Position numbers and translations under genes: made by a program. The notes beneath the pieces are model-generated. The model saw only the letters and a list, made by a program, of their open reading frames with translations. It made no database searches and was not told the origin of the DNA. 64,000 nucleotides of DNA from positions 20,522,001 through 20,586,000 of the forward strand of contig OZ004615.1 in the NCBI GenBank assembly GCA_963924565.1, given 5' to 3'. This DNA is from Ascidiella aspersa (lineage: Eukaryota). Below, piece by piece: positions 6,601 to 62,523 of this stretch (position 1 is the stretch's first letter; each line of letters opens with the position of its first letter).

Positions 6601-7026
6601 ATAAGTAGGAAAAGCAAAATGTTAGCCCATCATTTTACGTAAAAATTGAGGCTCATTCCAAGTTGGGATGAAATTAATTATGGCAAAGTTTAGTTGGGCA
6701 ACTTAGTAGTCTATTGGTCACGAAAAATTTTCCCAACTACTCGGGTCGCTTAAATACTCAATTACCATCATTTGTCGATTGACTTAAAATGATAAAAATT
6801 ATAAATAACAATCTATCTCGGTTTTATTTTTTTCTCCAAAAAACACGAGCTATGGATGCCCAGTAGCTTACAGCCAAATCGGCGGAGCTACGACCATGGT
6901 GGTGGCAAATAGGGCACTATCCATACAGCATATTGGTAATACCCCGCAGTTTACAAATATACCACTGAGCAAAACACCCTATAGTTACTCACTTAACGTT
7001 AAATTGTCTTACTTCTACGCCTATAG

Positions 7027-15615: not shown

Positions 15616-16028
15616 GTTTTGTTGCTGCATAATGCTGGAAAGTAGAGGAAAATAAGTCTTTGGTGGAAGGGAAGATTTTCGTGGTAGAAATGCCGCGGTC
15701 TCATCAAAGCCCAATTGTGAATACAAAACGCAAACAGGTCTGAACACAACGGATTATTTTAGATGTGTTTTCGCATATACAGTGACCAGGAGGCCTGTGC
15801 TATAGCAAGAGGTGACTTTTTTCAATACGCAAGTCAAGTCATTTAACGTCTAACATATGAGTCAAGTCAAGTAAGTAACTTTACTTCTGCTATTTGACTC
15901 TAGGTCAAGTTTGTAAGACTTTTGCACAAAATTACATATAATTGGGACAAAGTTTCTCAATTGTTTCAAGTGAAGCGTTAATTTAGGGCACTTGCCTTCA
16001 GACTTAAATAGACAAAGCGGGTTTGTAG

Positions 16029-31100: not shown

Positions 31101-34100
31101 AAAAACAGATGTGGACCGAAAAATGTGTGGCCTTCACCTATGTCGTTACAGAGGCAAAATCCAATTTGATAGACAAATGCACACCCCAAAACTTTTCCTT
31201 GATTTGTTTCTGCAAGCAAAAACATTGACCGAAAATTTCTCGCATTAACTTTTTTTTTCACTCTTTTCGCTTAGATGCAAAAGAGATAGTTTGCCAAGGG
31301 ATGTGTCGATCTTATCGTTAAGAAAAAGCATTTTTTGTAATTTGTTCGTAATTTTTACAAAAAACAACATATATTTAATTAATTTTTTTATTATATCCTA
31401 CATTAAAAAGTAAGCCTACTAACTTATTGGTAACTTTGCTTGGATTTCTACAAAAAATAGTTAGTGTTGTAATGCCCCCCACCCCCTCAAACCCCCCAAA
31501 AAAATCATAACAATTTATTTTATTTTCCTTAAATTCAAGCTTAATTTAACCTATACATTCAAAAGGATGATAACATTTATTGGTTTTTGTTTACATCAAC
31601 CAAATATTTCATATTTACAAACATAATATCCTCAAAATAGATTTGAAGCAAAACCACAAAAAATGAATAGTTAAACGATAAACAAAAATAAACATTCTCC
31701 ATCGGGAGTAAATATTGTTTTGTTAATGAAATTTTTTTCAATACCCCTCCAAAGAAATGCATACTCCCAACCTTTTGTCCCAAACGAAAAAAATAAATGT
31801 ACAATGTACTTTAACAATGCTTTTTTTGTCTAAATTCAAAATAAATACAACCAACAGTTTTTCTCCTAAATAAACTTTTTGCATTAGTTTGCCTCAAAAC
31901 CACCAGATTGTTCGATTTTAGTTATTATTTACTCCAAAAAACAAACAAGATATTCGTAGTATCATTTTGATGGTTTACTAGCGATTTGTTTTACATTGAA
32001 GCAAGTTGGTTAATTATGAGTTCTCATTAATGTCTTTACCTCGACCAATCACCTAACTTCTTCATAGGGCAGATTGTAGAAAATTGTTCTTTCAGCTAAT
32101 GTCTTATTCTGATATAAATTCACTCGGTTTTCGTTGGCTTAAAGCCAGCAAGCAAAGCAGCCAGCAACAACCGTTCTGTTTATTGACTAGACATGACTGG
32201 TGTATATTCATATAACGCTCTCGCATATACAAGTTGAGAATTTGCATGAAAAAGAAAGGCGATACGGAAAAGCGGAAATGTTTTATAACCCGAAGCCTTT
32301 TTGGCAGCCGGGAACTGTGACAGCAACGTGTTCACACAGGTGAAATACTTTTATCTGTAACGGAAATATGTGTCACACAAAAACATTTGTCATGTGTGAA
32401 AACAGCCGAAGCTTTGTTCTCAGAGTGACAGCGAAAGTTTTCAATAAAAGCGTGAAAAAGTATCAACATAATGCACACTCAATAAACATTTGAAATACTC
32501 AATTAAACAACTGAAATACCCAATTAAACATCTGAAATGACCCCAGATGCTACAACATAAATAGCATATTGGCGAACACTGCAAAAGAAGGATATATTGA
32601 ATTCTGTAGTTACTATTAACTAGACAAATGAAAATATTTTTCGTGAAATATTTTTTAGGTGCAATTTACCAAATTCGTCTTTTAAATACGACAATAAACA
32701 GGTATAAACATTAAAAATACATTTTCGCGCTTTGCGCAAAATCACTTAACTTAAGATGCTTGTTAGCGCACCGCTTCGCGTGGAAACAGCAAGTTTTTTA
32801 CAATTTAGAAACGTTGCGAGTCACAATGCTTTCCTGCGTTGTACGGTGGGTGAAACTTTATTACATGGCCTTGCCTCTATATTTATTACCGCGACAATAA
32901 ATTCAAATACGACGGTACGACGTATTTGGGGAACAAATACATTTGATAAATAGATTTTATGCAGATGATGCGTACGGCGATATTGTTAAATTTTGGCCAG
33001 CTAACATGTTTAAAAAGCAAATATAATTATTCTCTTTAAATGGTTTAACGCCTGTGGTACACTATACTTTTACCAATGTATTGCTAAGACGGGCCACTTC
33101 GCATAATAAACGTAGCGCGCGCGGGACAATAAAGCGCAGCACGATGCTAGCCGCTTTTTCGCTTGGCGAGCTAAACAAAGCAAGCGATAAGAACGATTTC
33201 TGTATGAAGTTTTTCTGCCGCTAGATAGGATTCGATTGCTACAAACAGCTAAAACGATGACGTCACAACATATTATGTTTTTTGCCCTCAATCAAAGGCC
33301 CCTAGGGGTGCAGCCTCATAAACCTCTAAATGCGCACTTACATACCACTCTACGTCATGTCTAAAAATTTAGAAGTACTGCAATGTACAGTTGTACACTT
33401 TTACTATAAAGCTTCGGACCAATAACATACCTAACACCAAAAAAAAATAACGGCAGTAACAAGAAAAAACACGAAAATAAATTTTCGGCACATATGACTA
33501 GAATTATCTAGTAGCCCAAGTCTTGATTAGGACACTATAGATTTTACAGCGAGAAATGTGATTTAATTTCTATGTTGATGACGTAACAATGCCACTGTTT
33601 TTCTTCCAATTACGCAAAATGTTGCTTACAAAAAGCACATGGCGCAAACTCGAATCTTAAGGTTTTTAACTGTAAATGGGTTCTTTCTGTGCTAAATATC
33701 TGTTGATTAGTCGGATTAGGAATTTGGGAGCTTATTAATACTACGGTTGTTTGTTTAGTCATTTATTGATAAACTTTAAACTGAAACTGAAATTTAGCCG
33801 TGCATGTTTATATCCAAGTTAATCCTGGATCCCTAACAAGTTTCTAAGTACAGTACATTAGTTTTGCGGTGGCCTAGACTTGGAAAACGACCGTGTTACG
33901 AACCGGCTTCCTGGATAAACACTGCGGCAAGCTTAAAAAAGTAAAATATTTTTTCAATTAGCAATTTTATTTATTTAACAGGGAAATTAGTGTAACCATT
34001 GTTTCTTCTATGTTAGAATTGCTTTACATAGCTTATTGTTAAAATTAAAAAAATAAATTTCTTTTTTTTTTTCTTAACATAAAACGACAAAGCTTCAACG

Positions 34101-37100
34101 TAAAAAATACATAAATCGTTAAGAAACCGGGGTTCAGTGGCCCCTAGCGATTTAGAATGGCCTAATTTTGCAACACAAATAGACCGACATAATTGTACAA
34201 CACTTACAATCGGGTCGTACGCGGAGCCGATTGGTTATTGACCGTCGGTGCCGTTGGCGCGTTCGAACTGCGCTTGCAGCAAGAACCGAGCTTACACAGA
34301 GCGCCGCTGATGGTGTCGGAATAAATCAAAGGGTTCAGGGCGCTGTTGGTCGGCAGTAGGATCCCGGCGCTTATAGCGTACACGACCGGGGGCAAATGCA
34401 CCCCCGACAGCTGCACAAAGGCCAGGGTGCAGAGCGGAACCCAGCAAGCAAAGTCGGTGAGAATAAGACGCGAAATGCGCGCCTGCATTTTCCTGGCCCG
34501 CTTGCTAACGGTGCCAGCCATTCGCACGCTGACGCGGTAGATGGCAAAGTAGCAGACGACCATGTAGAGGAAAAGCACAAAGTTGAGACTGATTAGGAAG
34601 CAGGAGAAAACCCAACCCGCCTCTCCGACGTTGACGAAAATTCGCGGCATGCAAACGCTCGTTTCGCCGTAGTAACCGATGTCGCCCTTGATGGGCAAGT
34701 AAGGGATCTTGCTTTCGATAAACTGCTTGGTCGCCATCCACGACGAAGCGTTGATTTGCCCCATTCTAAACGCGAGCGCGTTTAAGTCGGATTTTTTCAC
34801 TTGGTCCGATTTGTAAAAGTAATTGGGGAACCAGACCCCTGAAACAAAGTAGCCGGAAGTGGGGAACATTAGCGGAAAAGTGGCAATCAGGGCGGCCAAA
34901 ATCCAGGACGCAACAACCGCCATTCGTCCCCAAACAATTGTAAGAGTGGAAGTGACGAAAGGTCGTAGAATGGTGACGAGGCGAAACGTGGTCATGGACG
35001 TCATCACGAACACCGAGTTTTCTGTGGAAAGCACGACTAGGACTCCCAGAAGGGAGCAAAGCCGGCTCGTGCGCCAAGACTTATCGTGAAAGCAGTAAGA
35101 GCCCGAATACTGGTCGGCCTTGACGCAAACGGTGAGAAGGTAAATGCCCATGAGGAAATCCGAAATGGAGAGGTTGAGAACAAACAGCGAGTTGTACTGC
35201 ATCGGGATTGACATCGGCTCGGCTGCCAGGAAGCTCCTCGCCGTGGTGACGGACACCACAATGTTTCCGGCGATTGAAAGCAGCGCCATCATCCAGAAAA
35301 TGGCCAGGATTAATTTGTTGCCGATCAGTTCGTACTGGGACGAAAATACGTTGACTTTTTGGCTTTTGGGAGGACACTCGTCGCTGCCGTCAGAACAGTC
35401 CCACTTGCCATCCTCGACGTCGCTTATCGGCACCGAAAGCGGCTTTTTATCCAAACAGTAAAAGCGTTTGTCGGCGCAGCGGGCCTTGGACTCGTCGGCG
35501 CCGTTTTCGCAGTCGACTCTACCGTTGCACAACTCGTCCACGTCGATGCTCACCGACACGCCGTTGACGCAGTAAAAGCGCTCGGAGCAGTTCTTCTCCT
35601 CGAAGCCGAAGGGACAAGAAGCGTTTTTGATGACATAAGCGGCCGAGTCGTTCTGCCCGTTGCAGTAGCGATCCCCCATCGGGTAATACCAGCGACAGGG
35701 ATCGTCGCAGAACCACGGCCTGGTCGAGCAGTTCACACATTCGTCGGACATGTCGGCGCACTGAGGCCGCCCGTCGCACATCACGGCTTCGATCCAACCA
35801 GGCGCCGCCACGCAACGGATCGTAGCCCTGCCTTTGGTATCGACGCAGCCGACCGTGTTGGTCTTGTCGACGCACTGGTAGCTCCTGTTGCACAGCAGCT
35901 CTTCGCTTGGGAGGCAGCCAACAGTTTCGTCGCAGTAGAGTTGGTCTGGATGCTGACAGCGCGTCTTGGACACCCCCAGCACCTTGTCGCAGACTGTTTG
36001 ATCGGCGCAGAAACACTCGTCGGAAAGGTCGTAGCAGTCCACCACCCCGTCGCACACCTGCCTGGGCGCTATGATCAGCTTCTTGTCGAAGCATTGAAAG
36101 CAGCGCATCGCGCCGTCGACGAAGCACAAGTCCGAGCCGTCTGAGCACTGCGGCAAGTCGTCGTAGAGGTTGAGCTGCGGCAGACTGCAGGTGAAAGTCG
36201 AGTACTTGGTGGCGCATTTGAAACCTGGCCCGTAGTGCGTCTCATCGCTAAAGTCGCTGCACTGGCTGTTGCCGTCGCAGAACTGACGAATAATGAGCAC
36301 CTCCTTGTTTTTGCACAACACTGGCTTGATGCAGCCGGGCTGGCTGGCGGCGGGCGGCGAAGAAATACAGGCCCATTCCGGCGTCTGCTTCCCGATCGTG
36401 TTGTTTACGTAGGTCACGGTGAGCACCGGATGGCAGTGGGTCAGCGAGGCGTTCTCAAAATGCAGCATTGCGTTTTTTGCGTGCAAATCCGGACAGCTCA
36501 TGGCCTTGGTGCTCCAATTGTCGGCGCAGTCGTTCATTCCGACCACACAGGGCTCGTCATCGCCGCTGTAGCAGTCTATCATTCCGTTGTTGACGTCGGA
36601 AGTGGAAATACACCCCTTGTCCGAAGTGCAGTTCGAGCTTGCGTTAAATATGCAGCCGCACTTGACCTGGCCGATCAAACACGCACAGCCCTTCTCGTCG
36701 CTCCAGTCGCCGCACTCGTTCACGTCGTTACAGAGCTGCCAGGGAAGCACGCATCCGTTGCTGGTGTTGCACGTCTTTTCGACAGCCTCGTAACACGCGC
36801 AAGGCGTTTCGATGGGCAGGCAGGTGCAGCCGTATTCGTCGCTCCAGTCGCCGCAGTCGTTGTAGCCGTCGCATTGTTTACTTGCGCTTACGCAGCCGGG
36901 CGATCGGCCACAACCCGGGCGACTGCACCGGCACTGGAAGCTGTACTCCGGGCAGGTGCAGTTATTTTCGTCGCTCCAGTCGCCACAGTCGTTTACCAGG
37001 TTACAGCGCCTGACGCCGGCCACGCTTTCGGCTTTACAGGAAGACAGCACCGTCGGTCGAACGCTGCAAGCGCAGCGGAAAAAGGCGCAGTCGGTTTCGT

Positions 37101-40100
37101 CGCTGCCGTCGCCGCAGCCGTCAACGTGATTGCAAACGTAGCCTCCATTCACGGCCAGCGTCCGTCCCGGGCAGGATTCCCCGCATGCGCACACGAAAAG
37201 GCTTGCACCATATGTACAGTTGCGCTCGTCGCTACCATCTACACAGTCCTTGTATCCGTCGCACACCCAAGACGACCTAATGCACCAGGTATCCCCAGCG
37301 CAAAAGGTCGAATTCGGTTTGGCGCATTTGCAGCCAAAGTTGGGCGCCAGGCACTGACAGGAACGCTCGTCCGAGTGATCCGAGCACTGGTAGACGCCGT
37401 CGCAAACCTTGTACGCTGGCAACTTGACGATGTTATTCGTGCAGCTCCGGTTTCGAGAGCAAGCGCACGTGAACAAACTTGGTCGATCATCGCAGCCCGC
37501 TTCGTCGCTCCAATCCCCGCAGTCATTGAGCCCGTTGCATTGAGCTCTTTTGTCAACGCATCCCGCCGAAGTCTTGCAGCCCGACCAGTTACAATCGCAC
37601 GTAAACTGGCTAAAATGGCAAGGACATGCCACCTCGTCGCTCCAGTCGTGGCAGTCGTTTCTTTGGTTGCAAACCTCGACCCAAGCAACGCGTCGAGTAC
37701 TGGGCGTGACGCATGTGCCGTTCCGCGCGCATGCGCAGTAGAACTGGACCGCTACAAAGTCGCAGTAAAGCTCGTCGCTTCCGTCGGCGCAGTCGTCTCG
37801 GCCGTCGCACTTGTTGATCAGCGGAACGCAGCTGATCGGATCCGTGCACTTTCCGTTTGCGTAGCGGCAACCGCACGAAAACTGACCGGCGCATTGGCAG
37901 TCGGCCTCGTCGCTTCCGTCGGAACAATCGCTTTTGCCGTCGCAAGTCTGCCGCTGCAAAACGCACACCTCAGGGTAGACGCACGTGTTGTTGTCCTGAC
38001 ACGCGCAGCTAAAATACCCAGTATCACAAGTACATCCACGCTCGTCTGTCCCGTCCAAGCAATCCAGCACACCATCACAAATCTCTTTATCGCTGTAGCA
38101 TCCTCGACCGTAGTAGCAGTGGTATGTTCTTAGCGGGCAGCCGCACTGGTAAAGGCCAGGCGCGCAGAAGCAGTTCAGCTCGTCGAAACCCTTGAGACAG
38201 TCGCCCCCGCCGTCGCAAACCCAGTTCTTAGGGATGATTTCCGCTTTGTAGTTGCCCCTGACGCTGAAGTAGTAGCCGCTGAGGTATTTGGTCCGGGCCG
38301 GGCACATGCAGTTCACCATGCTGCTAGCTGGATCCAACCGCACGGCGTTGCACCATTCTGCAAACAAAGTGGTAACCCATTTGTGGAGTTGATTTTTTGT
38401 AATACTGCAGTTTATAGGATTGTTATGTGCGACCATTACGACGTATTCTCGTGGGTCGGAATCGGAACTCGGGACTCGAGTAAGACCACGTACAACTACC
38501 CGAGTCCCGAGTCCGACGTGCGTATGCGCAGTATCAATTTTTATAACTGTTAAGGCGGCAAAATGTAAGTTGTAAAAGTGTAATAGCATATGTGAACTAT
38601 TTTTAAACCATGTAATGCGTGTGGATCAATTATGACACCAATATGAGTCGATTGCAAAAAATCCACCTTAATTTAGTTGCGTAAATGGGTAAAATACAGG
38701 CTGTAGAGTCGGGCTGGACTCGGGACTCGACAAAATCTTACATTTGGCCGGAGTCGTACTCGGGTGTATTTTTTTGGCCGGAGTCGAACTCGGGAGTCGG
38801 ACTCGGGAGTCGAACTCGGGAGTCGGACTCGGGTTGTTTTTAACCGACTCCACAGCCCTGGTTTATATAAGCGTGACTCTTACAGGGGTGCTGTATTCAT
38901 TACTTGTGTTCTAATACGCCGTGGTGTTTAGCGTGCGGTTTTGCCCCACCAGTAGATATTACACTTTTTATACGCAAAGCTAAGGAACAGGAATACGTTA
39001 AAGTGAAGTTTTGCAATTAGGGACTTGCGATAAAGTTTTTTGTTATGCACGTACTCGAACTTTTGGTTTAAAGTTGTACGACTCTCCAAACTGAAACCCG
39101 TTGACATCATTACTTTGGTCAAGTAAATCAAATTAAAGAAATTGGAAAGTCCAATGGCAATATTTTCCAAGGTTTACGGTTTGTTAGGAGGCTTATTGAT
39201 CTTCGATTTATCTGCTCAAAATTGCTTTTTATACTCAAACTAGAAAACGTTGCTTCAAAACCATATCTCAAAATGTACCAATTAGTTTAGTATGGGATCG
39301 GTACCGATACTATAGTCTAATATCGAACGAGTAGCGATACTACCACTTGGTATCGGGTTTTGGTAAATTTGCAATAAGGAGTGTCCGATTTGATCGGAGC
39401 TAAATCGATATTTAATACCAAACGGAAAATATCGACAACTGGGTGGAATAATGTTGATTCGAAACGACATTGACAAAAGTATTTCAGCGATGTTTTTTTT
39501 ACGAAGCAACATTTTGTACTTGGAGATACAATTCTCTAAAAATTGATGGGAGATTAGGATTAACGTGTGTTTTTCTCCACTTTTAATATTGGTCTTACCG
39601 GTTACATAGAATCATATTCTTGTTTAGTCAGCAAACTTTTAATAAGCAGATAAAACGAATATATATGATATAAGTACGGTTCCGATATTAATATTACGTT
39701 CTGTTAGCATCTAGGTTGGAAAACGCCTTGTCGGGTGTAACTGACTGATGCCTAATCCAACCTAAAATGCTAATGATTATCACTTTTGATTTGGTTCAAT
39801 GTCAAGTACGCTCTCTATTTTTCTGTTTACGATACATGGTCAAACCCCTTAGGGCATAACTGCGGGTTAATATTTCATCCATCGAACTATTTATGTGCTT
39901 TGTTGGCAACGACTAATACAGAAAGTCGACACAATAGGCAAAATTATATTTCAAGGGGATGTTGTAACAACGGAAAACCGATTGAAATGACAATCAAAAA
40001 ACATGTAAATAGCCAAGAGAACGGCTAAAGGTAATATCAACCTACTGTAATATTCAATCCATCCAATTGGCTCACTTCCATCCACGGTAATTTTACTTTC

Positions 40101-43100
40101 CAACAATATTCCAAGAAGTAAAGCACGGCAAAACGATGGTAGATATTGCATGAACGAACTAAACGCCGCCTTTTGCATTCCTTTGGTTCAGTCTATTCAG
40201 TTTGCTGCATTACAGTTTTCCAAACCTGAAACTACTAATGAAAAGCTTAGGCGCACAGGGAATTTGATATTAAAGGCATTATCCTGTTCAAATAAATGTT
40301 ATGACATGTTTATGCCTACGGCACTCCAACGATTCCACTTAGGCGAAAAAATAAGCCATTATATAGTCGAATAAAACTCAAACTTTAATTTCTCATTACT
40401 TTGCCTACAAACATATGACACTTCTTTTTTTGTTCTAACATCTGTTGAACAATCCACTTGCTTGCTGCCAGTGCCTGTAGCTGCTATACTTCCACCGATG
40501 TGGTTCGTTTGGCCAATACAGTGAATTTCAACCTTTTGAGGTTTACGATACTCTCTATAAAATTTGTTTTACATTGAAGAAAGTTGGTTAATTACGAGTT
40601 CTCATTAATGTCTTTGCCTCGACCAATCATCTAACTTCTTTATAGGGGAGATTGTAGAAAATTGTTCTTTCAGCTAATGTCTTATTCTGATATAAATTCA
40701 CTCGGTTTTCGTTGGCTTAAAGCCAGCAAGCAAAGCAGCCAGCTACAACCGTTCTGTTTATTGATTAGACATGACTGGTGTATATTCATATAACGCTCTC
40801 GCATATACAAGTTGAGAATTTGCATGAAAAAGAAAGGCGATACGGAAAAGCGGAAATGTTTTATAACCCGAAGCCTTTTTTGGCAGCCTGTGACAGCAAC
40901 GTGTTCACACAGGTGAAATACTTTTATCTGTAACGGAAATATGTGTCACACAAAAACATTTGTCATGTGTGAAAACAGCCGAAGCTTTGTTCTCAGAGTG
41001 ACAGCGAAAGTTTTCAATAAAAGCGTGAAAAAGTATCAACATAATGCACACTCAATAAACATTTGAAATACTCAATTAAACATCTGAAATACTCAATTAA
41101 ACATCTGAAATGACCCCAGATGCTACAACATAAATAGCATATTGGCGAACACTGCAAAAGAAGGATATATTGAATTCTGTAGTTACTATTAACTATACAA
41201 ATGAAAATATTTTTCGTGAAATATTTTTTAGGTGCAATTTACCAAATTCGTCTTTTAAATACGACAATAAACAGGTATAAACATTTAAAATACATTTTCG
41301 CGCTTTGCGCAAAACCACTTAACTTAAGATGCTTGTTAGCGCACCGCTTCGCGTGGAAACAGCAAGTTTCTTTAGAATTTAGAAACGTTGCGAGTCGCAA
41401 TGCTTTCCTGCGTTGTACGGTGGGTGAAACTTTATTACATGGCCTTGCCTCTTTATTTATTACCGCGACAATAAATTCAAATACGACGGTACGACGTATT
41501 TGGGGAACGATCGACAAATAGATTTTATACAGATGATGCGTACGGCGATATTGTTAAATTTTGGCCAGCTAACATGTTTAAATAGCAAATATAATTATTC
41601 TCTTTAAACGGTTTAACGCCTGTGGTACACTATACTTCTGCCAATGTTTTACTAAGACGAGCCACTTCGCATAATGAACGTAGCGCGCGCGGGACAATAA
41701 AGCGCAGCACGATGCCAGCCGCTTTTTCGCTTGGCGAGCTAAACAAAGCAAGCGATAAGAACGAATTCTGTATTGAAGTTTTTCTGCCGCTAGATAGGAA
41801 TCGAAAGCTACAGATAGCTAAAACGATAACGTCACAACATTTTATGTTTTTTGCCCTCAATCAGAGGCCCCTAGGGGTGCAGCCTCATAAACCTCTAAAT
41901 GCGCACCTGCAAACCACTCTACGTCATGTCTAAAAATTTAGAAGTACTGCTTTGTACAGTTGTACACTTTTACTATAAAGCTTCGGACCAATAACATACC
42001 TAACATAAAAAAAATAACGGCAGTAACAAGAAATAACACGAAAATAAATTTTCGGCACATATGACTAGAATTATCTAGTAGCCCAAGTTTTGTTTGACAC
42101 TATAGATTTTACAGCTAGAAATGTGATTTAATTTCTATGTTGATGACGTAACAATGCCACTGTTTTCCTTCCTATTGCGCAAAATGTTGCTTACAAAAAG
42201 CACATGGCGAAAACTCGTATCTTAAAGTTTTTAACTGTAAATGGGTTCTTCCTGTGCTAAATATCTGTTGATTAGTCGGATTAGGAATTTGGGAGCTTAT
42301 TAATACTACGGTTGTTTGTTTAGTCATTTATTGATAAACTTTAAACTGAAACTGAAATTTAGCTGTGCATGTTTATATCCAAGTTAATCCTGGATCCCTA
42401 ACAAGTTTCTAAGTCCAGTACATTAGTTCTGCGGTGGCCTAGACTTTTAAAACGACCGTGTTACGCCCCGGCTTCCTGGATAAACACTGCGGCAAGCTTA
42501 AAAAAGTAAAATGTTTTTTCAATTAGCAATTTTACTCATTTAACAGGGAACTTAGTGTAACCATTGTTTCGTCTATTTAAGAATTGTTTTACGATAGTTT
42601 TCACGCTTTACATAGCTTATTATTAAAATTAAAAAAAAAATTCAATGTCTTTGTTTTATCTATCATAAACGACGAAGCTTTAACGTAAAAAAGCATAAAT
42701 ATTTATCAAAGCGGAGTTCGATAGTCCCTGGCGATTTAGAATGGCCTCATCTTGCGACACGAAAAGACCCACACAATTGTACAACACTTACAATCGGGTT
42801 GAATGCGAAGCCGATTGGTTATTGGCCGTCGGTGCCGTTGGCGCGTTCGAACTGCGCTTACAGCAAGAACCGATCTCACACAGAGCGCCGCTGATGGTTT
42901 CGGAGTAAATCAAAGGGTTCAGGGCGCTGTTGGTCGGCAGTAGGATCCCGGCGCTTATAGCGTACACGACCGGGGGCAAATGCACCCCCGACAGCTGCAC
43001 AAAGGCCAGGGTGCAGAGCGGAACCCAGCAAGCAAAGTCGGTGAGAATAAGACGCGAAATGCGCGCCTGCATTTTCCTGGCCCGCTTGCTAACGGTGCCA

Positions 43101-46100
43101 GCCATTCGCACGCTGACGCGGTAGATGGCAAAGTAGCAGACGACCATGTAGAGGAAAAGCACAAAGTTGAGGCTTATTAGGAAACAGGAGAAAACCCAGC
43201 CCGCCTCTCCGACGTTGACGAAAATTCGGGGCATGCAAACACTCGTTTCACCGTAGTAACCGATGTCGCCCTTGATGGGCAAGTAAGGGATCTTGCTTTC
43301 GATGAACTGCTTGGTCGCCATCCACGACGAAGCGTTGATTTGCCCCATTCTTAACGCGAGCGCATTCAAGTCGGCTTTTTTCACTTGGTCCGATTTGTAA
43401 AAGTAATTGGGGAACCAGACTCCGGACACAAAGTAGCCGGAAGTGGGGAACATTAGCGGAAAAGTGGCAATCAGGGCGGCCAAAATCCAGGACGCAACAA
43501 CCGCCATTCGTCCCCAAACAATTGTAAGAGTGGAAGTGACGAAAGGTCGTAGAATGGTGACGAGGCGAAACGTGGTCATGGACGTCATCACAAACACCGA
43601 GTTTTCTGTTGAAAGCACGACTAGGACTCCCAGAAGGGAGCAAAGCCGGCTCGTGCGCCAAGACTTATCGTGAAAGCAGTAAGAGCCCGAATATTGGGCG
43701 GCCTTGACGCAAACGGTGAGAAGGTAAACGCCCATGAGGAAATCCGAAATGGACAGGTTGAGAACAAACAGCGAGTTGTACTGCATCGGGATTGACATCG
43801 GCTCGGCTGCCAGGAAGCTCCTCGCCGTGGTGACGAACACCACAATGTTTCCGGCGATCGAAAGCAGCGCCATCAGCCAGAAAATGGCCAGGATTAATTT
43901 GTTGCCGATCAGTTCGTACTGGGACGAAAATACGGTGACTTTTTGGCTTTTGGGAGGACACTCGTCGCTGCCGTCAGAACAGTCCCACTTGCCATCCTCG
44001 ACGTCGCTTATCGGCACCGAAAGCGGCTTTTTATCCAAGCAGTAAAAGCGTTTGTCGGCGCAGCGGGCCTTGGACTCGTCGGCGCCGTTTTCGCAGTCGA
44101 CTCTACCGTTGCACAACTCGTCCACGTCGATGCTCACCGACACGCCGTTGACGCAGTAAAAGCGCTCGGAGCAGTTCTTCTCCTCGAAGCCGAAGGGACA
44201 AGAGGCGTTTTTGATGACATAAGCGGCCGAGTCGTTCTGCCCGTCGCAGTAGCGATCCCCCATCGGGTAATACCAGCGACAGGGATCGTCGCAGAACCAC
44301 GGCCTGGTCGAGCAGTTCACACATTCGTCGGACATGTCGGCGCACTGAGGCCGTCCGTCGCACATCACGGCTTCGATCCAACCAGGCGCCGCCACGCAAC
44401 GGATCGTAGCCCTGCCTTTGGTATCGACGCAGCCGACCGTGTTGGTCTTGTCGACGCACTGGTAGCTCCTGTTGCACAGCAGCTCTTCGCTTGGGAGGCA
44501 GCCAACAGTTTCGTTGCAGTAGAGTTGGTCAGGATGCTGACAGCGTGTCTTGGACGCCCCCAGCACCTTGTCGCAGATTGTTTGATCGGCACAAAAGCAC
44601 TCGTCGGAAAGGTCGTAGCAGTCCACCACCCCGTCGCACACCTGTCTGGGCGCTATTATCAGCTTCTTGTCGAAGCATTGGAAGCAGCGCATCGCGCCGT
44701 CGACGAAGCACAAGTCCGAGCCGTCTGAGCACTGCGGCAAGTCGTCGTAGAGGTTGAGCTGCGGCAGACTGCAGGTGAAAGTCGAGTACTTGGTGGCGCA
44801 TTTGAAACCTGGCCCGTAGTGCGTCTCATCGCTAAAGTCGCTGCACTGGCTGTTGCCGTCGCAGAACTGACGAATAATGAGCACGTCCTTGTTTTTGCAC
44901 AACACTGGCTTGATGCAGCCGGGCTGGCTGGCGGCGGGCGGCGAAGAAATACAGGCCCATTCCGGCGTCTGCTTCCCGATCGTGTTGTTTACGTAGGTCA
45001 CGGTGAGCACCGGATGGCAGTGGGTCAGCGAGGCGTTCTCAAAATGCAGCATTGCGTTTTTTGCGTGCAAATCCGGACAGCTCATGGCCTTGGTGCTCCA
45101 ATTGTCGGCACAGTCGTTCATTCCGACCACACAGGGCTCGTCATCGCCGCTGTAGCAGTCTATCTTTCCGTTGTTGACGTCGGAAGTGGAAATACACCCC
45201 TTGTCCGAAGTGCAGTTCGAGCTTGCGTTAAATATGCAGCCGCACTTGACCTGGCCGATCAAACACGCACAGCCCTTCTCGTCGCTCCAGTCGCCGCACT
45301 CGTTCACGTCGTTACAGAGCTGCCAGGGAAGCACGCATCCGTTGCTGGTGTTGCACGTCTTTTCGACAGCCTCGTAACACGCGCAAGGCGTTTCGATGGG
45401 CAGGCAGGTGCAGCCGTATTCGTCGCTCCAGTCGCCGCAGTCGTTGTAGCCGTCGCATTGTTTACTTGCGCTTACGCAGCCGGGCGATCGGCCACAACCC
45501 GGGCGACTGCACCGGCACTGGAAGCTGTACTCCGGGCAGGTGCAGTTATTTTCGTCGCTCCAGTCGCCACAGTCGTTTACCAGGTTACAGCGCCTGACGC
45601 CGGCCACGCTTTCGGCTTTACAGGAAGACAGCACCGTCGGTCGAACGCTGCAAGCGCAGCGGAAAAAGGCGCAGTCGGTTTCGTCGCTGCCGTCGCCGCA
45701 GCCGTCAACGTGATTGCAAACGTAGCCTCCATTCACGGCCAGCGTCCGTCCCGGGCAGGATTCCCCGCATGCGCACACGAAAAGGCTGGCACCATATGTA
45801 CAGTTGCGCTCGTCGCTACCATCTACACAGTCCTTGTATCCGTCGCACACCCAAGACGACCTAATGCACCAGGTATCCCCAGCGCAGAAGGTCGAATTCG
45901 GTTTGGCGCATTTGCAGCCAAAGTTGGGCGCCAGGCACTGACAGGAACGCTCGTCCGAGTGATCCGAGCACTGGTAGACGCCGTCGCAAACCTTGTACGC
46001 TGGCAACTTGACGATGTTATTCGTGCAGCTCCGGTTTCGAGAGCAAGCGCACGTGAACAAACTTGGTCGATCATCGCAGCCCGCTTCGTCGCTCCAATCC

Positions 46101-49100
46101 CCGCAGTCATTGAGCCCGTTGCATTGAGCTCTTTTGTCAACGCATCCCGCCGAAGTCTTGCAGCCCGACCAGTTACAATCGCACGTAAACTGGCTAAAAT
46201 CGCAAGGACATGCCACCTCGTCGCTCCAGTCGTGGCAGTCGTTTCTTTGGTTGCAAACCTCGACCCAAGCAACGCGTCGAGTACTGGGCGTGACGCATGT
46301 GCCGTTCCGCGCGCATGCGCAGTAGAACTGGACCGCTACAAAGTCGCAGTAAAGCTCGTCGCTTCCGTCGGCGCAGTCGTCCCGGCCGTCGCACTTGTTG
46401 ATCAGCGGAACGCAGCTGATCGGATCCGTGCACTTTCCGTTTGCGTAGCGGCAACCGCACGAAAACTGACCGGCGCATTGGCAGTCGGCCTCGTCGCTTC
46501 CGTCGGAACAATCGCTTTTGCCGTCGCAAGTCTGCCGCTGCAAAACGCACACCTCAGGATAGACGCACGTGTTGTTGTCCTGACACGCGCAGCTAAAATA
46601 CCCAGTATCACAAGTACATCCACGCTCGTCTGTCCCGTCCAAGCAATCCAGCACACCATCACAAATCTCTTTATCGCTGTAGCATCCTCGACCGTAGTAG
46701 CAGTGGTGTGTTCTTAGCGGGCAGCCGCACTGGTAAAGGCCAGGCGCGCAGAAGCAGTTCAGCTCGTCGAAACCCTTGAGACAGTCGCCCCCGCCGTCGC
46801 AAACCCAGTTCTTAGGGATGATTTCCGCTTTGTAGTTGCCCCTGACGCTGAAGTAGTAGCCGCTGAGGTATTTGGTCCGGGCCGGGCACATGCAGTTCAC
46901 CATGCTGCTAGCTGGATCCAACCGCACGGCGTTGCACCATTCTGCAAACAAAGTGGTAACCCATTTGTGGAGTTGATTTTTTGTAATACTGCAGTTTATA
47001 GGATTGTTATGTGCGACCATTACGACGTATTCTCGTGGGTCGGAATCGGAACTCGGGACTCGAGTAAGACCGCGTAAAACTACCCGAGTCCCGAGTCCGA
47101 CGTGCGTATGCGCAGTATCAATTTTTATAACTGTTAAGGCGGCAAAATGTAAGTTGTAAAAGTGTAATAGCATATGTGAAATATTTTTAAACCATGTAAT
47201 GCGTGTGGATCAATTATGACACCAATATGAGTCGATTGCAAAAAATCCACCTTAATTTAGTTGCATAAATGGGTAAAATACAGGCTGTAGAGTCGGGCTG
47301 GACTCGGGACTCGACAAAATCTTACATTTGGCCGGAGTCGTACTCGGGTGTATTTTTTTGGCCGGAGTCGAACTCGGGAGTCGGACTCGGGAGTCGAACT
47401 CGGGAGTCGGACTCGGGTTGTTTTTAACCGACTCCACAGCCCTGGTTTATATAAGCGTGACTCTTACAGGGGTGCTGTATTCATTACTTGTGTTCTAATA
47501 CGCCGTGGTGTTATGCGGTTTTGCCCCACCAGTAGATATTACACTTTTTATACGCAAAGCTAAGGAACAGGAATACGTTAAAGTGAAGTTTTGCAATTAG
47601 GGACTTGCGATAAAGTTTTTTGTTATGCACGTACTCGAACTTTTGGTTTAAAGGTATACGACTCTCCAAACTGAAACCAGTTGACATCATTACTTTGGTC
47701 AAGTAAATCAAATTTTTTTAGGAAAGTCCAATGGCAATATTTTCTAAGGTTTACGGTTTGTTAGGAGGCTTATTGATCTTCGATTTATCTGCTCAAAATT
47801 GCTTTTTATACTCAAACTAGAAAACGTTGCTTCAAAACCATATCTCAAAATGTACCAATTAGTTTAGTATGGGATCGGTACCGATACTATAGTCTAATAT
47901 CGAACGAGTAGCGATACTACCACTTGGTATCGGGTTTTGTTAAATTTGCAATAAGGAGTGTCCGATTTGATCGGAGCTAAATCGATATTTAATACCAAAC
48001 GGAAAATATCGACAACTGGGTGGAATAATGTTGATTCGAAACGACATTGACAAAAGTATTTCAGCGATGTTTTTTTTACGAAGCAACATTTTGTACTTGG
48101 AGATACAATTCTCTAAAAATTGATGGGAGATTAGGATTAACGTGTGTTTTTCTCCACTTTTAATATTGGTCTTACCGGTTACATAGAATCATATTCTTGT
48201 TTAGTCAGCAAACTTTTAATAAGCAGACAAAACGAATATATATGATATAATGACGGTTCCGATATTAATATTACGTTCAACGTTCTGTTAGCATCTAGGT
48301 TAAAAAACGCCTTGTCGGGTGTAACTGACTGATGCCTAATCCAACCTAAAATGCTAATGATTATCACTTTTGATTTGGTTCAATGTCAAGTACGCTCTCT
48401 ATTTTTCTGTTTACGATACATGGCTACAAGTCAAACCCCTTAGGGCATAACTGCGGGTTAATATTTCATCCATCGAACTATTTATGTGCTTTGTTGGCAA
48501 CGACTAATACAGAAAGTCGACACAATAGGCAAAATTATATTTCAAGGGGATGTTGTAACAACGGAAAACCGATTAAAATGACAATCAAAAAACATGTAAA
48601 TAGCCAAGAGAACGGCTAAAGGTAATATCAACCTACTGTAATATTCAATCCATCCAATTGGCTCACTTCCATCCACGGTAATTTTACTTTCCAACAATAT
48701 TCCAAGAAGTAAAGCACGGCAAAACGATGGTAGATATTGCCTGAACGAACTAAACGCCGCCTTTTGCATTCCTTTGGTTCAGTCTATTCAGTTTGCTGCA
48801 TTACAGTTTTCCAAACCTGAAACTACTAATGAAAAGCTTAGGCGCACAGGGAATTTGATATTAAAGGCATTATCCTGTTCAAATAAATGTTATGACATGT
48901 TTATGCCTACGGCACTCCAACGATTCCACTTAGGCGAAAAAATAAGCCATTATATAGTCGAATAAAACTCAAACTTTAATTTCTCATTACTTTGCCTACA
49001 AACATATGACACTTCTTTTTTTGTTCTAACATCTGTTGAACAATCCACTTGCTTGCTGCCAGTGCCTGTAGCTGCTATACTTCCACCGATGCGGTTCGTT

Positions 49101-52100
49101 TGGCCAATACAGTGAATTTCAACCTTTTGAGGTTTACGATACTCTCTATAAAATTTGTTTTACATTGAAGAAAGTTGGTTAATTACGAGTTCTCATTAAT
49201 GTCTTTGCCTCGACCAATCACCTAACTTCTTTATAGGGGAGATTGTAGAAAATTGTTCTTTCAGCTAATGTCTTATTCTGATATAAATTAACTCGGTTTT
49301 CGTTGGCTTAAAGCCAGCAAGCAAAGCAGCCAGCTACACCCGTTCTGCTTATTGATTAGACATGACTAATGTATATTCATATAACGCTCTCGCATATACA
49401 AGTTGAGAATTTGCATGAAAAAGAAAGGCGATACGGAAAAGCGGAAATGTTTTATAACCCGAAGCCTTTTTTGGCAGCCTGTGACAGCAACGTGTTCACA
49501 CAGGTGAAATACTTTTATCTGTAACAGAAATATGTGTCACACAAAAACATTTGTCATGTGTGAAAACAGCCCAAGCTTTGTTCTCAGAGTGACAGCGAAA
49601 GTTTTCAATAAAAGCGTGAAAAAGTATCAACATAATGCACACTCAATAAACATTTGAAATACTCAATTAAACATCTGAAATACTCAATTAAACATCTGAA
49701 ATGACCCCAGATGCTACAACATAAATAGCATATTGGCGAACACTGCAAAAGAAGGATATATTGAATTCTGTAGTTACTATTAACTATACAAATGAAAATA
49801 TTTTTCGTGAAATATTTTTTTAGGTGCAATTTACCAAATTCGTCTATTAAATACGACAATAAACAGGGATAAACATTAAAAATACATTTTCGCGCTTTGC
49901 GCAAAATCACTTAACTTAAGCTGCTTGTTAGCGCACCGCTTCGCGTGGAAACAGCAAGTTTCTTTACAATTTAGAAACGTTGCGAGTCACAATGCTTTCC
50001 TGCGTTGTACGGTGGGTGAAACTTTATTACATGGCCTTGCCTCTTTATTTATTACCGCGACAATAAATTCAAATACGACGGTACGACGTATTTGGGGAAC
50101 GATCGACAAATAGATTTTATACAGATGATGCGTACGGCGATATTGTTAAATTTTGGCCAGCTAACATGTTTAAAAAGCAAATGTAATTATTCTCTTTAAA
50201 TGGTTTAACGCCTGTGGTACACTATACTTCTGCCAATGTTTTACTAAGACGAGCCACTTCGCATAATGAACGTAGCGCGCGTGGGACAATAAAGCGCAGC
50301 ACGATGCTAGCCGCTTTTTCGCTTGGCGAGCTAAACAAAGCAAGCGATAAGAACGAATTCTGTATTGAAGTTTTTCTGCCGCTAGATAGGAATCGAAACC
50401 AACAAACAGCTAAAACGATAACGTCACAACATTTTATGTTTTTTGCCCTCAATCAGAGGCCCTAGGGGTGCAGCCTCATAAACCTCTAACCATAACACCA
50501 AACAAAATAACGGCAATAACAAGAAATGACCCGAAAATAAATTTTTGCCCAAGTCTTGTTAGGACACTATAGATTTTACAGCTAGAAATGTGATTTAATT
50601 TCTATGTTGATGACGTAACAAAAATGTTGCTTACAAAAAGCACATGGCGCAAACTCGTATCTTAAAGTTTTTGGTAAATGGGTTCTTCCTGTGCTAGATA
50701 TCTGTTGATTAGTCGGATTAGGAATTTGGGAGCTTATTAATATTACGGTTGTTTGTTTAGTCATTTATTGATAAACTTTAAACTGAAAGTGAAATTTAGC
50801 TGTGCATGTTTATATCCAAGTTAATCCTGGATCCCTAACAAGTTTCTAAGTCCAGTACATTAGTTCTGCGCTGGCCTAGACTTGGAAAACGACCGTGTTA
50901 CGCACCGGCTTCCTGGATAAACACTGCGGCAAGCTTAAAAAGTAAAATGTTTTTCAACTAGCAATTTTACTCATTTAACAGGGAACTTAGTGTAACCATT
51001 GTTTCGTCGCTTTACATAGCTTATTGTTAAAATTAAAAAACAAATTCAATGTCTTTATTTTATCCATCATAAACGACGAAGCTTTAACGTAAAAAAGCAT
51101 AAATATTTATCAAAGCGGAGTTCGATAGTCCCTGGCGATTTAGAATGGCCTAATCTTGCGACTCGAATAGACCCACACAATTGTATACAACACTTACAAT
51201 CGGGTTGAATGCGAAGCCGATTGGTTATTGGCCGTCGGTGCCGTTGGCGCGTTCGAACTGCGCTTACAGCAAGAACCGATCTTACACAGAGCGCCGCTGA
51301 TGGTTTCGGAGTAAATCAAAGGGTTCAGGGCGCTGTTGGTCGGCAGTAGGATCCCGGCGCTTATAGCGTACACGACCGGGGGCAAATGCACCCCCGACAG
51401 CTGCACAAAGGCCAGGGTGCAGAGCGGAACCCAGCAAGCAAAGTCGGTGAGAATAAGACGCGAAATGCGCGCCTGCATTTTCCTGGCCCGCTTGCTAACG
51501 GTGCCAGCCATTCGCACGCTGACGCGGTAGATGGCAAAGTAGCAGACGACCATGTAGAGGAAAAGCACAAAGTTGAGGCTTATTAGGAAGCAGGAGAAAA
51601 CCCAACCCGCCTCTCCGACGTTGACGAAAATTCGCGGCATGCAAAGACTCGTTTCGCCGTAGTAACCGATGTCGCCCTTGATGGGCAAATAGGGGATCTT
51701 GCTTTCGATAAACTGCTTGGTCGCCATCCACGACGAAGCGTTGATTTGCCCCATTCTTAACGCGAGCGCATTCAAGTCGGCTTTTTTCACTTGGTCCGAT
51801 TTGTAAAAGTAATTGGGGAACCAGACTCCTGACACAAAGTAGCCGGAAGTGGGGAACATTAGCGGAAAAGTGGCAATCAGGGCGGCCAAAATCCAGGACG
51901 CAACAACCGCCATTCGTCCCCAAACAATTGTAAGAGTGGAAGTGACGAAAGGTCGTAGAATGGTGACGAGGCGAAACGTGGTCATGGAGCAAAGCCGGCT
52001 CGTGCGCCAAGACTTATCGTGAAAGCAGTAAGAGCCCGAATATTGGGCGGCCTTGACGCAAACGGTGAGAAGGTAAACGCCCACGAGGAAATCCGAAATG

Positions 52101-55100
52101 GACAGGTTGAGAACAAACAGCGAGTTGTACTGCATCGGGATTGACATCGGCTCCGCTGCCAGGAAGCTCCTCGCCGTGGTGACGAACACCACAATGTTTC
52201 CGGCGATCGAAAGCAGCGCCATCAGCCAGAAAATGGCCAGGATTAATTTGTTGCCGATCAGTTCGTACTGGGACGAAAATACGGTGACTTTTTGGCTTTT
52301 GGGAGGACACTCGTCGCTGCCGTCAGAACAGTCCCACTTGCCATCCTCGACGTCGCTTATCGGCACCGAAAGCGGCTTTTTATCCAAGCAGTAAAAGCGT
52401 TTGTCGGCGCAGCGGGCCTTGGACTCGTCGGCGCCGTTTTCGCAGTCGACTCTACCGTTGCACAACTCGTCCACGTCGATGCTCACCGACACGCCGTTGA
52501 CGCAGTAAAAGCGCTCGGAGCAGTTCTTCTCCTCGAAGCCGAAGGGACAAGAGGCGTTTTTGATGACATAAGCGACCGAGTCGTTCTGTCCGTCGCAGTA
52601 GCGATCCCCCATCGGGTAATACAAGCGACAGGGATCGTCGCAGAACCACGGCCTGGTCGAGCAGTTCACACATTCGTCGGACATGTCGGCGCACTGAGGC
52701 CGTCCGTCGCACATCACGGCTTCGATCCAACCAGGCGCCGCCACGCAACGGATCGTAGCCCTGCCTTTGGTATCGACGCAGCCGACCGTGTTGGTTTTGT
52801 CGACGCACTGGTAGCTCCTGTTGCACAGCAGCTCTTCGCTTGGGAGGCAGCCAACAGTTTCGTTGCAGTAGAGTTGGTCAGGATGCTGACAGCGTGTCTT
52901 GGACGTCCCCAGCACCTTGTCACAGATTGTTTGATCGGCACAAAAGCACTCGTCGGAAAGGTCGTAGCAATCCACCACCCCGTCGCACACCTGTCTGGGC
53001 GCTATTATCAGCTTCTTGTCGAAGCATTGGAAGCAGCGCATCGCGCCGTCGACGAAGCACAAGTCCGAGCCGTCCGAGCACTGCGGCAAGTCGTCGTAGA
53101 GGTTGAGCTGCGGCAGGCTGCAGGTAAAAGTCGAGTACTTGGTGGCGCATTTGAAACCCGGCCCGTAGTGCGTCTCATCGCTAAAGTCGCTGCACTGGCT
53201 GTTGCCGTCGCAGAACTGACGAATAATGAGCACCTCCTTGTTTTTGCACAACACTGGCTTGATGCAGCCGGGCTGGCTGGCGGCGGGCGGCGAAGAAATA
53301 CAGGCCCATTCCGGCGTCTGCTTCCCGATCGTGTTGTTTACGTAGGTCACGGTGAGCACTCGATAGCAGTGGGTCAGGGAGGCGTTCTCAAAATGCAGCA
53401 TTGCGTTTTTTGCGTGCAAATCCGGACAGCTCATGGCCTTGGTGCTCCAATTGTCGGCGCAGTTGTTCATTCCGACCACACAGGGCTCGTCATCGCCGCT
53501 GTAGCAGTCTATCATTCCGTTGTTGACGTCGGAAGTGGAAATACACCCCTTGTCCGAAGTGCAGTTCGAGCTTGCGTCAAATATGCAGCCGCACTTGACC
53601 TGGCCGATCAAGCACGCACAGCCCTTTTCGTCGCTCCAGTCGCCGCACTCGTTCACGTCGTTACAGAGCTGCCAGGGAAGCATGCATCCGTTGCTGGTGT
53701 TGCACGTCTTTTCGACAGCCTCGTAACACGCGCAAGGCGTTTCGATGGGCAGGCAGGTGCAGCCGTATTCGTCGCTCCAGTCGCCGCAGTCATTGTAGCC
53801 GTCGCATTGTTTACTTGCGCTTACACAGCCGGGCGATTGACCGCAACCCGGGCGACTGCACCGGCACTGGAAGCTGTACGCCGGGCAGGTGCAGTTGTTT
53901 TCGTCGCTCCAGTCGCCACAGTCGTTTACCAGGTCACAGCGCCTGACGCCGGCCACGCTTTCGGCTTTACAGGAAGACAGCACCGCCGGTCGAACGCTGC
54001 AAGCGCAGCGGAAAAAGTCGCAGTCGGTTTCGTCGCTGCCGTCGCCGCAGCCGTCTACGTGATTGCAAACGTAGCCTTCATTCACGGCCAGCGTCCGTCC
54101 CGGGCAGGATTCCCCGCATGCGCACACGAAAAGGCTTGCACCATATGTACAGTTGCGCTCGTCGCTACCATCTACACAGTCCTTGTATCCGTCGCACACC
54201 CAAGACGACCTAATGCACCAGGTATCCCCAGCGCAAAAGGTCGAATTCGGTTTGGCGCATTTGCAGCCAAAGTTGGGCGCCAGGCACTGACAGGAACGCT
54301 CGTCCGAGTGATCCGAGCACTGGTAGACGCCGTCACAAACCTCGTACGCTGGCAACTTGATGATGTTATTCGTGCAGCTTCGGTTTCGAGAGCAAGTGCA
54401 CGTGAACAAACTTGGTCGATCATCGCAGCCCGCTTCGTCGCTCCAATCCCCGCAGTCATTGAGCCCGTTGCATTGAGCTCTTTTGTCAACGCATCCCGCC
54501 GAAGTCTTGCAGCCCGACCAGTTACAATCGCACGTAAACTGGCTCAAACCGCAAGGACATGCCACCTCGTCGCTCCAGTCGCCGCAGTCGTTTCTTTGGT
54601 TGCAAACCTCGACCCAAGCAACGCGTCGAGTACTGGGCGTGACGCATGTGCCGTTCCGCGCGCATGCGCAGTAGAACTGGACCGCAACAAAGTCGCAGTA
54701 AAGCTCGTCGCTTCCGTCGGCGCAGTCGTCCCGGCCGTCGCACTTGTTGATCAGCGGAACGCAGCTGATCGGATCCGTGCACTTTCCGTTTGCGTAGCGG
54801 CAACCGCACGAAAACTGACCGGCGCATTGGCAGTCGGCCTCATCGCTTCCGTCGGAACAATCGCTTTTGCCGTCGCAGGTCTGCCGCTGCAGAACGCACA
54901 CCTCAGGGTAGACGCACGTGTTGTTGTCCTGACACGCGCAGCTAAAATACCCAGTATCACAAGTACATCCACGCTCGTCTGTCCCGTCCAAGCAATCCAG
55001 CACACCATCACAAATCTCTTTATCGCTGTAGCATCCTCTACCGTAGTAGCAGTGCTGTGTTCTCAGCGGGCAGCCGCACTGGTAAAGGCCAGGCGCGCAG

Positions 55101-62409: not shown

Positions 62410-62523
62410 GCTGATTGTGTTTTGTTGTTATCACCACACTATACTCTTGTGCAGCTGGAAACATATGCTAACTGATCAACTTTACTTAATGGTGGAAGTT
62501 TGCAAATCAGCAACAGAGTTGGA

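Follow-up and report, generated by a model that had tools for sequence, protein, structure and literature searches.

The middle gene of a tandem array of three LDL-A-repeat GPCR genes is a hybrid of its two neighbours, its left part following copy 3 and its right part copy 1. This middle gene is a recombinant. Misaligned copies on two different chromosomes most likely underwent an unequal (non-allelic homologous) crossover near 44.70 kb, a reading to which we give a probability of about three in four. Unequal crossover is a well-known way for gene clusters to grow.

Self-comparison of the window (the whole stretch of 64,000 nt that was analysed) reveals three head-to-tail 8.6-kb units on contig C9 of the 308.6-Mb genome, each with one minus-strand, two-exon LDL-A-repeat GPCR gene (Table 1). 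Each gene consists of a 133-bp exon 1, located 1.7 kb upstream in copy 2, and a 4.15-kb exon 2. Exon 1 and both splice sites are also conserved in a paralog on contig C7, and the splicing is a prediction read from this conservation, not from RNA. A 1473-aa stop-to-stop frame was rejected as the protein given the conserved first exon and the shared splice sites; its first 89 residues are intron. A genome search with an 801-bp probe returned the three array copies and a paralog on C7 (91%), and in addition 39 weaker matches, many of which lie in tandem clusters. The C7 gene (about 10.002–10.008 Mb) is a single close paralog, 84–87% identical to the window copies; its ectodomain has about 33 extra codons compared with them, an extra module that is also found in C1 paralogs, and it has a Pro-Ala-rich tail. 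Around the array, a 249-bp direct repeat (91%) lies on both sides (15368–15616 and 62162–62410), and a short tandem repeat lies directly past copy 3 (61858–62150). Two multi-exon paralogs of an MFS-type transporter occupy 6800–13800 and 24400–30650, with exons about 79–91% identical; one of their exon frames has a weak Pfam MFS_1 match (E = 3e-5, under the curated cut-off).

Table 1. Features of the receptor array, in positions of the window.
Feature	Position	Strand	Description
Unit 1, copy 1 (A)	31984..40561	-	Intact gene; exon 1 40178-40046, exon 2 38357-34204; 1428 aa
Unit 2, copy 2 (hybrid, X)	40562..49152	-	Intact gene; exon 1 48769-48637, intron 1695 bp, exon 2 46941-42788; 1428 aa
Unit 3, copy 3 (B)	49153..61044	-	Exon 1 60108-59976, exon 2 55290-51194; 1409 aa
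Copy-3-like part of copy 2	40562..44681	-	3′ flank, C terminus, 7TM, proximal ectodomain (from residue about 798)
Copy-1-like part of copy 2	44726..49152	-	Distal ectodomain, intron, exon 1, upstream region
Likeliest crossover interval	44681..44726		Residues about 783-798, mid cysteine-rich ectodomain; 44 bp of perfect identity between copies 1 and 3
Second tract shared by copies 2 and 3	47654..47745		Intron; 10 sites and a 3-bp indel at which copy 1 differs (two-state model); outside the outgroup alignment
Junction J1	40518..40608		Tail-to-head join, 1-2 bp microhomology
Junction J2	49109..49199		Same as J1 across the 90 bp compared
In-frame deletion in copy 3	51985..51986	-	57 bp; residues 1146-1164 lost, the third hydrophobic helix
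LTR-bounded insertion, copy-3 intron	56645..59660		3020 bp, TG...CA ends, 4-bp target duplication
Insertion upstream of copy 3	60376..60930		557 bp, about 270 bp upstream of the start codon; TG...CA ends, 4-bp target duplication

By Pfam, the copy 1 protein matches LDL-A (PF00057, E = 4e-61), with 14 LDL-A stretches at E ≤ 0.1 and 9 at E ≤ 0.01, and 7tm_1 (PF00001, E = 2.9e-13), and its hydrophobic segments agree with a 7TM fold. Matches of GPCR type in the PDB for the 7TM region are LHCGR, RXFP1, TSHR and FSHR chains (RXFP1 chain 7tmw_R, E = 1.7e-18). The best protein relatives are Ciona proteins with LDL-A and 7tm_1 (41–49% identity), and named relatives also come from Clavelina and Phallusia, which suggests that the animal is an ascidian; the named proteins among the best 27 of 31 matches are all ascidian LDL-A plus 7tm_1 proteins (E ≤ 4e-52), far above GRL101-like proteins (E about 1e-24 to 1e-25). 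Judged by this predicted architecture of tandem LDL-A modules, a rhodopsin-type 7TM and no leucine-rich repeats, the array genes are of the ascidian LDLRR-GPCR kind. According to the passages of Kamesh et al. 2008 (PMC2396169) that describe it, the Ciona family has 1–10 LDL-A modules and most of its Ciona ESTs come from blood cells. The array genes resemble that family (as described in those passages) in their tandem LDL-A modules, the absence of leucine-rich repeats, the 7TM related to relaxin and glycoprotein-hormone receptors and the lineage-specific expansion, but their protein is longer, at 1428 aa and 14 LDL-A stretches at E ≤ 0.1. Snail GRL101 and vertebrate RXFP1 (type C LGRs) likewise combine one or more LDL-A modules with a related 7TM; unlike the array receptor, in which the Pfam search found no LRR family at E ≤ 0.1, both have leucine-rich repeats in the ectodomain. 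For copy 2, the predicted product is a class A GPCR that bears many LDL-A modules and likely signals like its parents. An RNA run (X12, tissue unknown, 6% of reads used) gives 0–2.5× over coding bins.

The first-pass annotation had described copy 2 as a chimera, copy-3-like on the left and copy-1-like on the right, and had suggested a three-way alignment with a recombination test. This description is confirmed, and all the peptide and DNA markers that it quoted are present. The alignment over the copy 2 unit comprises 3870 ungapped columns left of 44681 and 4394 right of it. On the left, copy 2 agrees with copy 3 at 120 sites and with copy 1 at 43 (26 private to copy 2, 2 three-state); on the right, it agrees with copy 3 at 17 sites and with copy 1 at 135 (15 private to copy 2). 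The switch is highly significant (Fisher test, p = 4e-31), also in the coding frame alone (41:12 versus 4:44, p = 8e-13). A max-chi-square scan of 315 informative sites places the best break exactly at 44681|44726, with a value of 124.8 that none of 10,000 permutations reached (permutation maximum 23.2). As the annotation had also stated, copy 2 has no LTR insertions: those of 3020 bp and 557 bp are found in copy 3 only.

Such a switch might be only apparent if copy 1 had evolved fast on the left and copy 3 on the right. Copy 3 is probably decaying, and on the left its private changes do outnumber those of copy 2 (43 versus 26, p = 0.053). However, when states are polarised with the C7 paralog, aligned over the long frame, shared derived states flip from 16 (copies 2 and 3) versus 2 (copies 1 and 2) on the left to 1 versus 19 on the right. 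Private changes polarised in the same way are about equal (20 and 20), and a single fast copy therefore accounts for neither side. AU tests reject a single tree: on the left the tree joining copies 2 and 3 has 0.98 and both alternatives are rejected (p = 0.025 and 0.034), whereas on the right the tree joining copies 1 and 2 has 0.994 and both alternatives are rejected (p = 0.002 and 0.011). The distance between copies 1 and 3 is alike on the two sides (4.3% left, 3.5% right; non-coding 5.5% on both), which argues that copy 2 is the recombinant. Unequal rates are thus rejected as the source of the switch, barring a matching exchange of the C7 paralog with these copies, and we consider a history free of recombination scarcely credible. 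Near the stop codon and in the first 200 bp of the 3′ flank (34006–34224 versus 42571–42808), copy 1 differs from copies 2 and 3 by about 10% per 500-bp window, far over the unit average.

The crossover had been mapped in the annotation to about 45 bp. This is the best interval, with a change-point posterior of 68–73% in 44681–44725, but it is not a hard bound: a further 15–22% falls in 44726–44767, and the 97.5% bound lies at 44775–44831 depending on the span analysed, 50–105 bp further right. The interval holds only this share of the posterior because sites shared by copies 1 and 2 also occur on the left at a background rate. The 44-bp run of identity between copies 1 and 3 at the break is one of 57 runs of at least that length among 306, and a 200-bp run begins at 44811. 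The second tract in which copy 2 resembles copy 3, in the intron, is either a short conversion tract or a cluster of changes private to copy 1; with a laxer switch penalty, the two-state model adds a further tract at 41899–42053.

Five of 16 sequencing runs were examined as short reads and contigs (X1–X3, X11 and X12), none of which could be tied to the assembled animal. Depth over the array is about 2.8×, 3.1× and 4× single copy in X1, X11 and X2, three runs from two studies. In X11, raw DNA reads give a depth of 18.9 over 8 coding bins and 6.07 over 8 flank bins (ratio 3.1, bootstrap 2.6–3.7; the flank bins are 8 repeat-free ones chosen out of 16, the depth expected from the bases read is 6.27, and the final coding bin, a repeat, was excluded). 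The X11 bin in which copy 1 is most diverged has a depth of 7.1, about one copy. Contig depths, a poor measure of copy number and here from a single study, are 133–144 in the array versus 49–53 in the flank for X1 and 347–434 versus 91–106 for X2. Depth may be biased by GC content, which is 57% in the coding DNA versus 35% in the flank; in the flanking part of the unit with 28–48% GC, B-type contigs are also above single copy, at 80–134 in X1 (about 1.6–2×) and up to 295 in X2 (about 3×). The higher depth of X2 (about 4×, versus about 3× in X1 and X11) hints at copy-number variation.

These data bear on the possibility that the array is an assembly artefact, with two A-B haplotypes stitched at 44.7 kb and no chromosome carrying three copies or a hybrid. 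Stitching gives exactly the A-X-B order together with allelic-level differences between the duplicated halves, and no molecule among the short reads and contigs spans the array. The annotation had named halved depth as the sign of such stitching; depth is not halved, nor is it 2× in any of the three runs. At least one X11 read has, at 53075, the letter of copies 1 and 2 and departs from copy 3 at one other position, which makes it a junction-type read: among simulated full-length reads, those from copy 1 differ from copy 3 at 3 or more positions and those from copy 2 at 1–3. X11 reads at 36061–36097 with 2 other differences fit copy 2 (minimum 0–2) and not copy 3 (minimum 3–4). In X2, an 849-bp contig shows copy-3 states up to and including the left edge of the interval, and beyond it those of copy 1. 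The word length of Logan is 31; the contigs are probably unable to phase the 46-bp gap, and the X11 junction-type read could be clipped. Also counting against a simple A-X-B picture, an X1 contig has copy-1 letters at 52994 and 53006. Taken together, the depth and the junction-type read and contig make a stitching artefact unlikely, and we rate it as improbable.

X11 comes from a different animal than the assembled one, since it lacks assembly alleles at 52703 (0 of 22 reads), 52084 (0 of 14) and 52970 (0 of 20), and its junction-type read, coming from an animal without these private alleles of the assembly, counts against a stitching artefact. Right of the interval, copy-1/2 letters in X11 are near a quarter rather than two thirds at 53126 (3/12), 53378 (5/18) and 53464 (5/21), and stand at 5/10, 9/11 and 7/11 at 53075, 53117 and 53360. 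On the left, copy-1 letters make up 55 of 235 (23%) over 14 sites and 81 of 112 (72%) over 6 others. All these shares are taken from the variant rows with the best support (40 of 318 and 40 of 67), a selection that biases them. The X11 animal carries further mosaics and is not plain A-X-B. The left-hand shares would also suit a stitched assembly, as they fit four sequences in quarters; as a GC-independent test of copy number the allele shares were dropped, quarters and sixths both fitting. X11 also has alleles absent from all three assembled copies, at 35026 (17/19), 52961 (15/21) and 53184 (10/14).

The junctions between units point to how the array may have begun. The junction sequence occurs just twice in the whole genome assembly, as J1 and J2. 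Because of its 1–2 bp of microhomology and the identity of J1 with J2, we infer that one non-homologous duplication made A-B and that a later homologous unequal exchange copied the junction. In the history that we favour, a non-homologous tandem duplication of 8.6 kb would first have produced A-B with junction J, as its breakpoint sequence suggests, and A and B would then have drifted apart to about 3.5–4.3%. Next, the A copy of one chromosome would have aligned with a B-type copy on a second one, with a crossover inside exon 2; the switch itself is observed, and the mechanism is the probable one. The product would be A-[B-left/A-right]-B with two identical junctions, and any homologous unequal exchange in an A-B array leads to a middle copy of this form. 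The B-type donor may have come from a two-copy haplotype, as its B allele, or from a haplotype that already had three copies, as its middle one. On the assembled haplotype, copy 3 is observed to lack most of TM3 through a deletion and to hold two insertions.

The duplicated segment has diverged unevenly. The left part of copy 2 differs from that of copy 3 at 71 of 3870 positions (1.83%), and the right part of copy 1 from that of copy 2 at 32 of 4394 (0.73%; p = 6e-6, or p = 0.003 relative to the A–B distance). One event from identical chromosomes does not yield such an asymmetry, which calls for B alleles that differed, for a middle copy that was already distinct when it served as the B-type donor, or for conversion afterwards. 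The left flank is near-invariant in contigs of X1 (1 difference in 7749 bp) and X2 (5 in about 6200). This is hard to square with allelic differences of 0.7–1.8% within the array and speaks for a history that is older or had several steps. The annotation had proposed unequal crossover in a two-gene array, with two haplotypes involved. The geometry of a crossover is borne out by the outgroup, the AU tests, the identity of J1 and J2 and the depth of about 3×. By contrast, a two-gene starting point is not established, since the asymmetry and the X11 shares equally fit a crossover or long conversion in a pre-existing three-copy array; for the same reason, two haplotypes are compatible with the 1.83% versus 0.73% difference but an array already of three copies accounts for it equally well.

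Alternatively, an older array A-B1-B2 may have had the right half of its middle copy (about 4.5 kb, 44.7–49.15 kb) overwritten later from copy 1, through a long gene-conversion tract or two successive exchanges, with copy number unchanged at that step. The left parts of copies 2 and 3 are 2.5 times as diverged as the right parts of copies 1 and 2, as such a history would predict, and X11 has about three copies yet mostly copy-3-type letters at 53126, 53378 and 53464. The tract at 47654–47745 and a related cluster described below suggest that conversion happens, and conversion yields the same chimeric pattern without a change in copy number, as stated in the part of PMC4041002 that treats it. 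However, overwriting needs a 4.5-kb tract that ends at about the unit boundary, and the difference between copies 2 and 3 shows no drop in the first kilobase past the junction (1.6% and 1.4%). If a three-copy chromosome crossed over with a two-copy one, a single step accounts for the asymmetry, and the X2 depth of about 4× with its copy-2-like path fits a crossover-driven change in copy number. We therefore judge overwriting to be unlikely, and retain unequal crossover as the preferred origin of copy 2.

At the protein level, the exchange is modest. Among its 1428 residues, the hybrid sides with copy 1 at 18 distal positions and with copy 3 at 16 proximal ones. Overall, 23 residues separate it from copy 1, and 28 residues together with a 19-residue gap separate it from copy 3. 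The parent proteins are about 97% identical, and pN/pS is 0.14–0.26 in all four comparisons (small counts). These 34 discriminating residues (about 1% on each side) are mostly conservative and the protein is under purifying selection; a new role is unlikely. The proposal that the exchange offers a route to new receptor variants is thus true in form, but with parents this similar and such pN/pS values there is no sign of new function or expression.

Copy 3, by contrast with copies 1 and 2, has no Pfam 7tm_1 match at E ≤ 0.01, and its in-frame deletion removes most of TM3. With most of TM3 missing, a class A GPCR would not be expected to fold. As a result, the hybrid is the only intact carrier of a B-type 7TM on the assembled haplotype, and copy 3 is likely to be decaying. 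Only the undeleted form of this site is present among the variants listed for X11, X1, X2 and X3. The 3.0-kb insertion has terminal repeats of 360 and 310 bp that differ by a 47-bp gap, and its longest frame (203 aa) has no Pfam match; it is probably a non-autonomous LTR element. Both copy 3 insertions finish in the same 7 bases. A 23-bp deletion near 55535 in copy 3 is intronic.

A further cluster, on contig C8 (5.258–5.358 Mb, L007–L015), contains at least eight shorter LDL-A GPCR genes (about 1160–1200 aa) that are 84–97% identical and mosaic; they have no evident separate signal-peptide exon, and four are broken by stops or frameshifts. Across eight of these genes, the top 10 of 168 triplets were beaten by 0 of 2000 permutations (whole-gene spans, triplets not outgroup-polarised), and incompatibility of informative sites in near pairs is 0.29 versus 0.51 in permutations, nearby sites being more compatible than distant ones. 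The hybrid shows that LDL-A GPCR clusters of ascidians undergo recombination and that their copy number probably differs among animals, which matters for their annotation and for asking whether these receptors act in variable recognition. Going further, the array may be a segregating A-X(n)-B series in which the hybrid is the expanding unit (about 4 copies in X2) and parent B is decaying, which would make it a replacement of the anti-Lepore style in progress; similar shuffling across many clusters would then diversify an orphan, possibly blood-cell, ascidian receptor family in the way of vertebrate immune receptor clusters. We offer this extension tentatively and think it rather unlikely.

In the literature searched (supplements outside its scope), we found no report of hybrids among ascidian LDL-A GPCRs, and the passages of PMC2396169 used here contain no account of hybrids or array dynamics. 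The arrangement itself is of the anti-Lepore and FCGR2C type, a textbook process that can be mapped cleanly here, in an orphan receptor family that has received little study: real but ordinary, a fresh case of something well known. As in the anti-Lepore HBB/HBD chromosomes, in the account given in parts of PMC4041002, the order is parent-hybrid-parent in direct orientation, arising by unequal crossover of tandem paralogs; here each half of the hybrid matches the parent on its farther side, the intergenic junction is duplicated with the hybrid and copy number is raised (J1 identical to J2, depth about 3×). On anti-Lepore chromosomes the parental genes are typically inactivated or lost later, as copy 3 seems to be. 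However, the anti-Lepore parents differ in regulation and the role of their hybrid is known (same parts of PMC4041002), whereas the array parents are about 97% identical and the hybrid promoter is that of the intact copy 1. Human FCGR2C, as portrayed in the relevant passages of PMC6563257, is likewise a hybrid receptor gene that links two tandem modules through non-allelic homologous recombination, with later copy-number variation. There, an inhibitory-receptor ectodomain is joined to an activating tail, a functional swap; in the array, the exchange falls inside the ectodomain of nearly identical orphan GPCRs.
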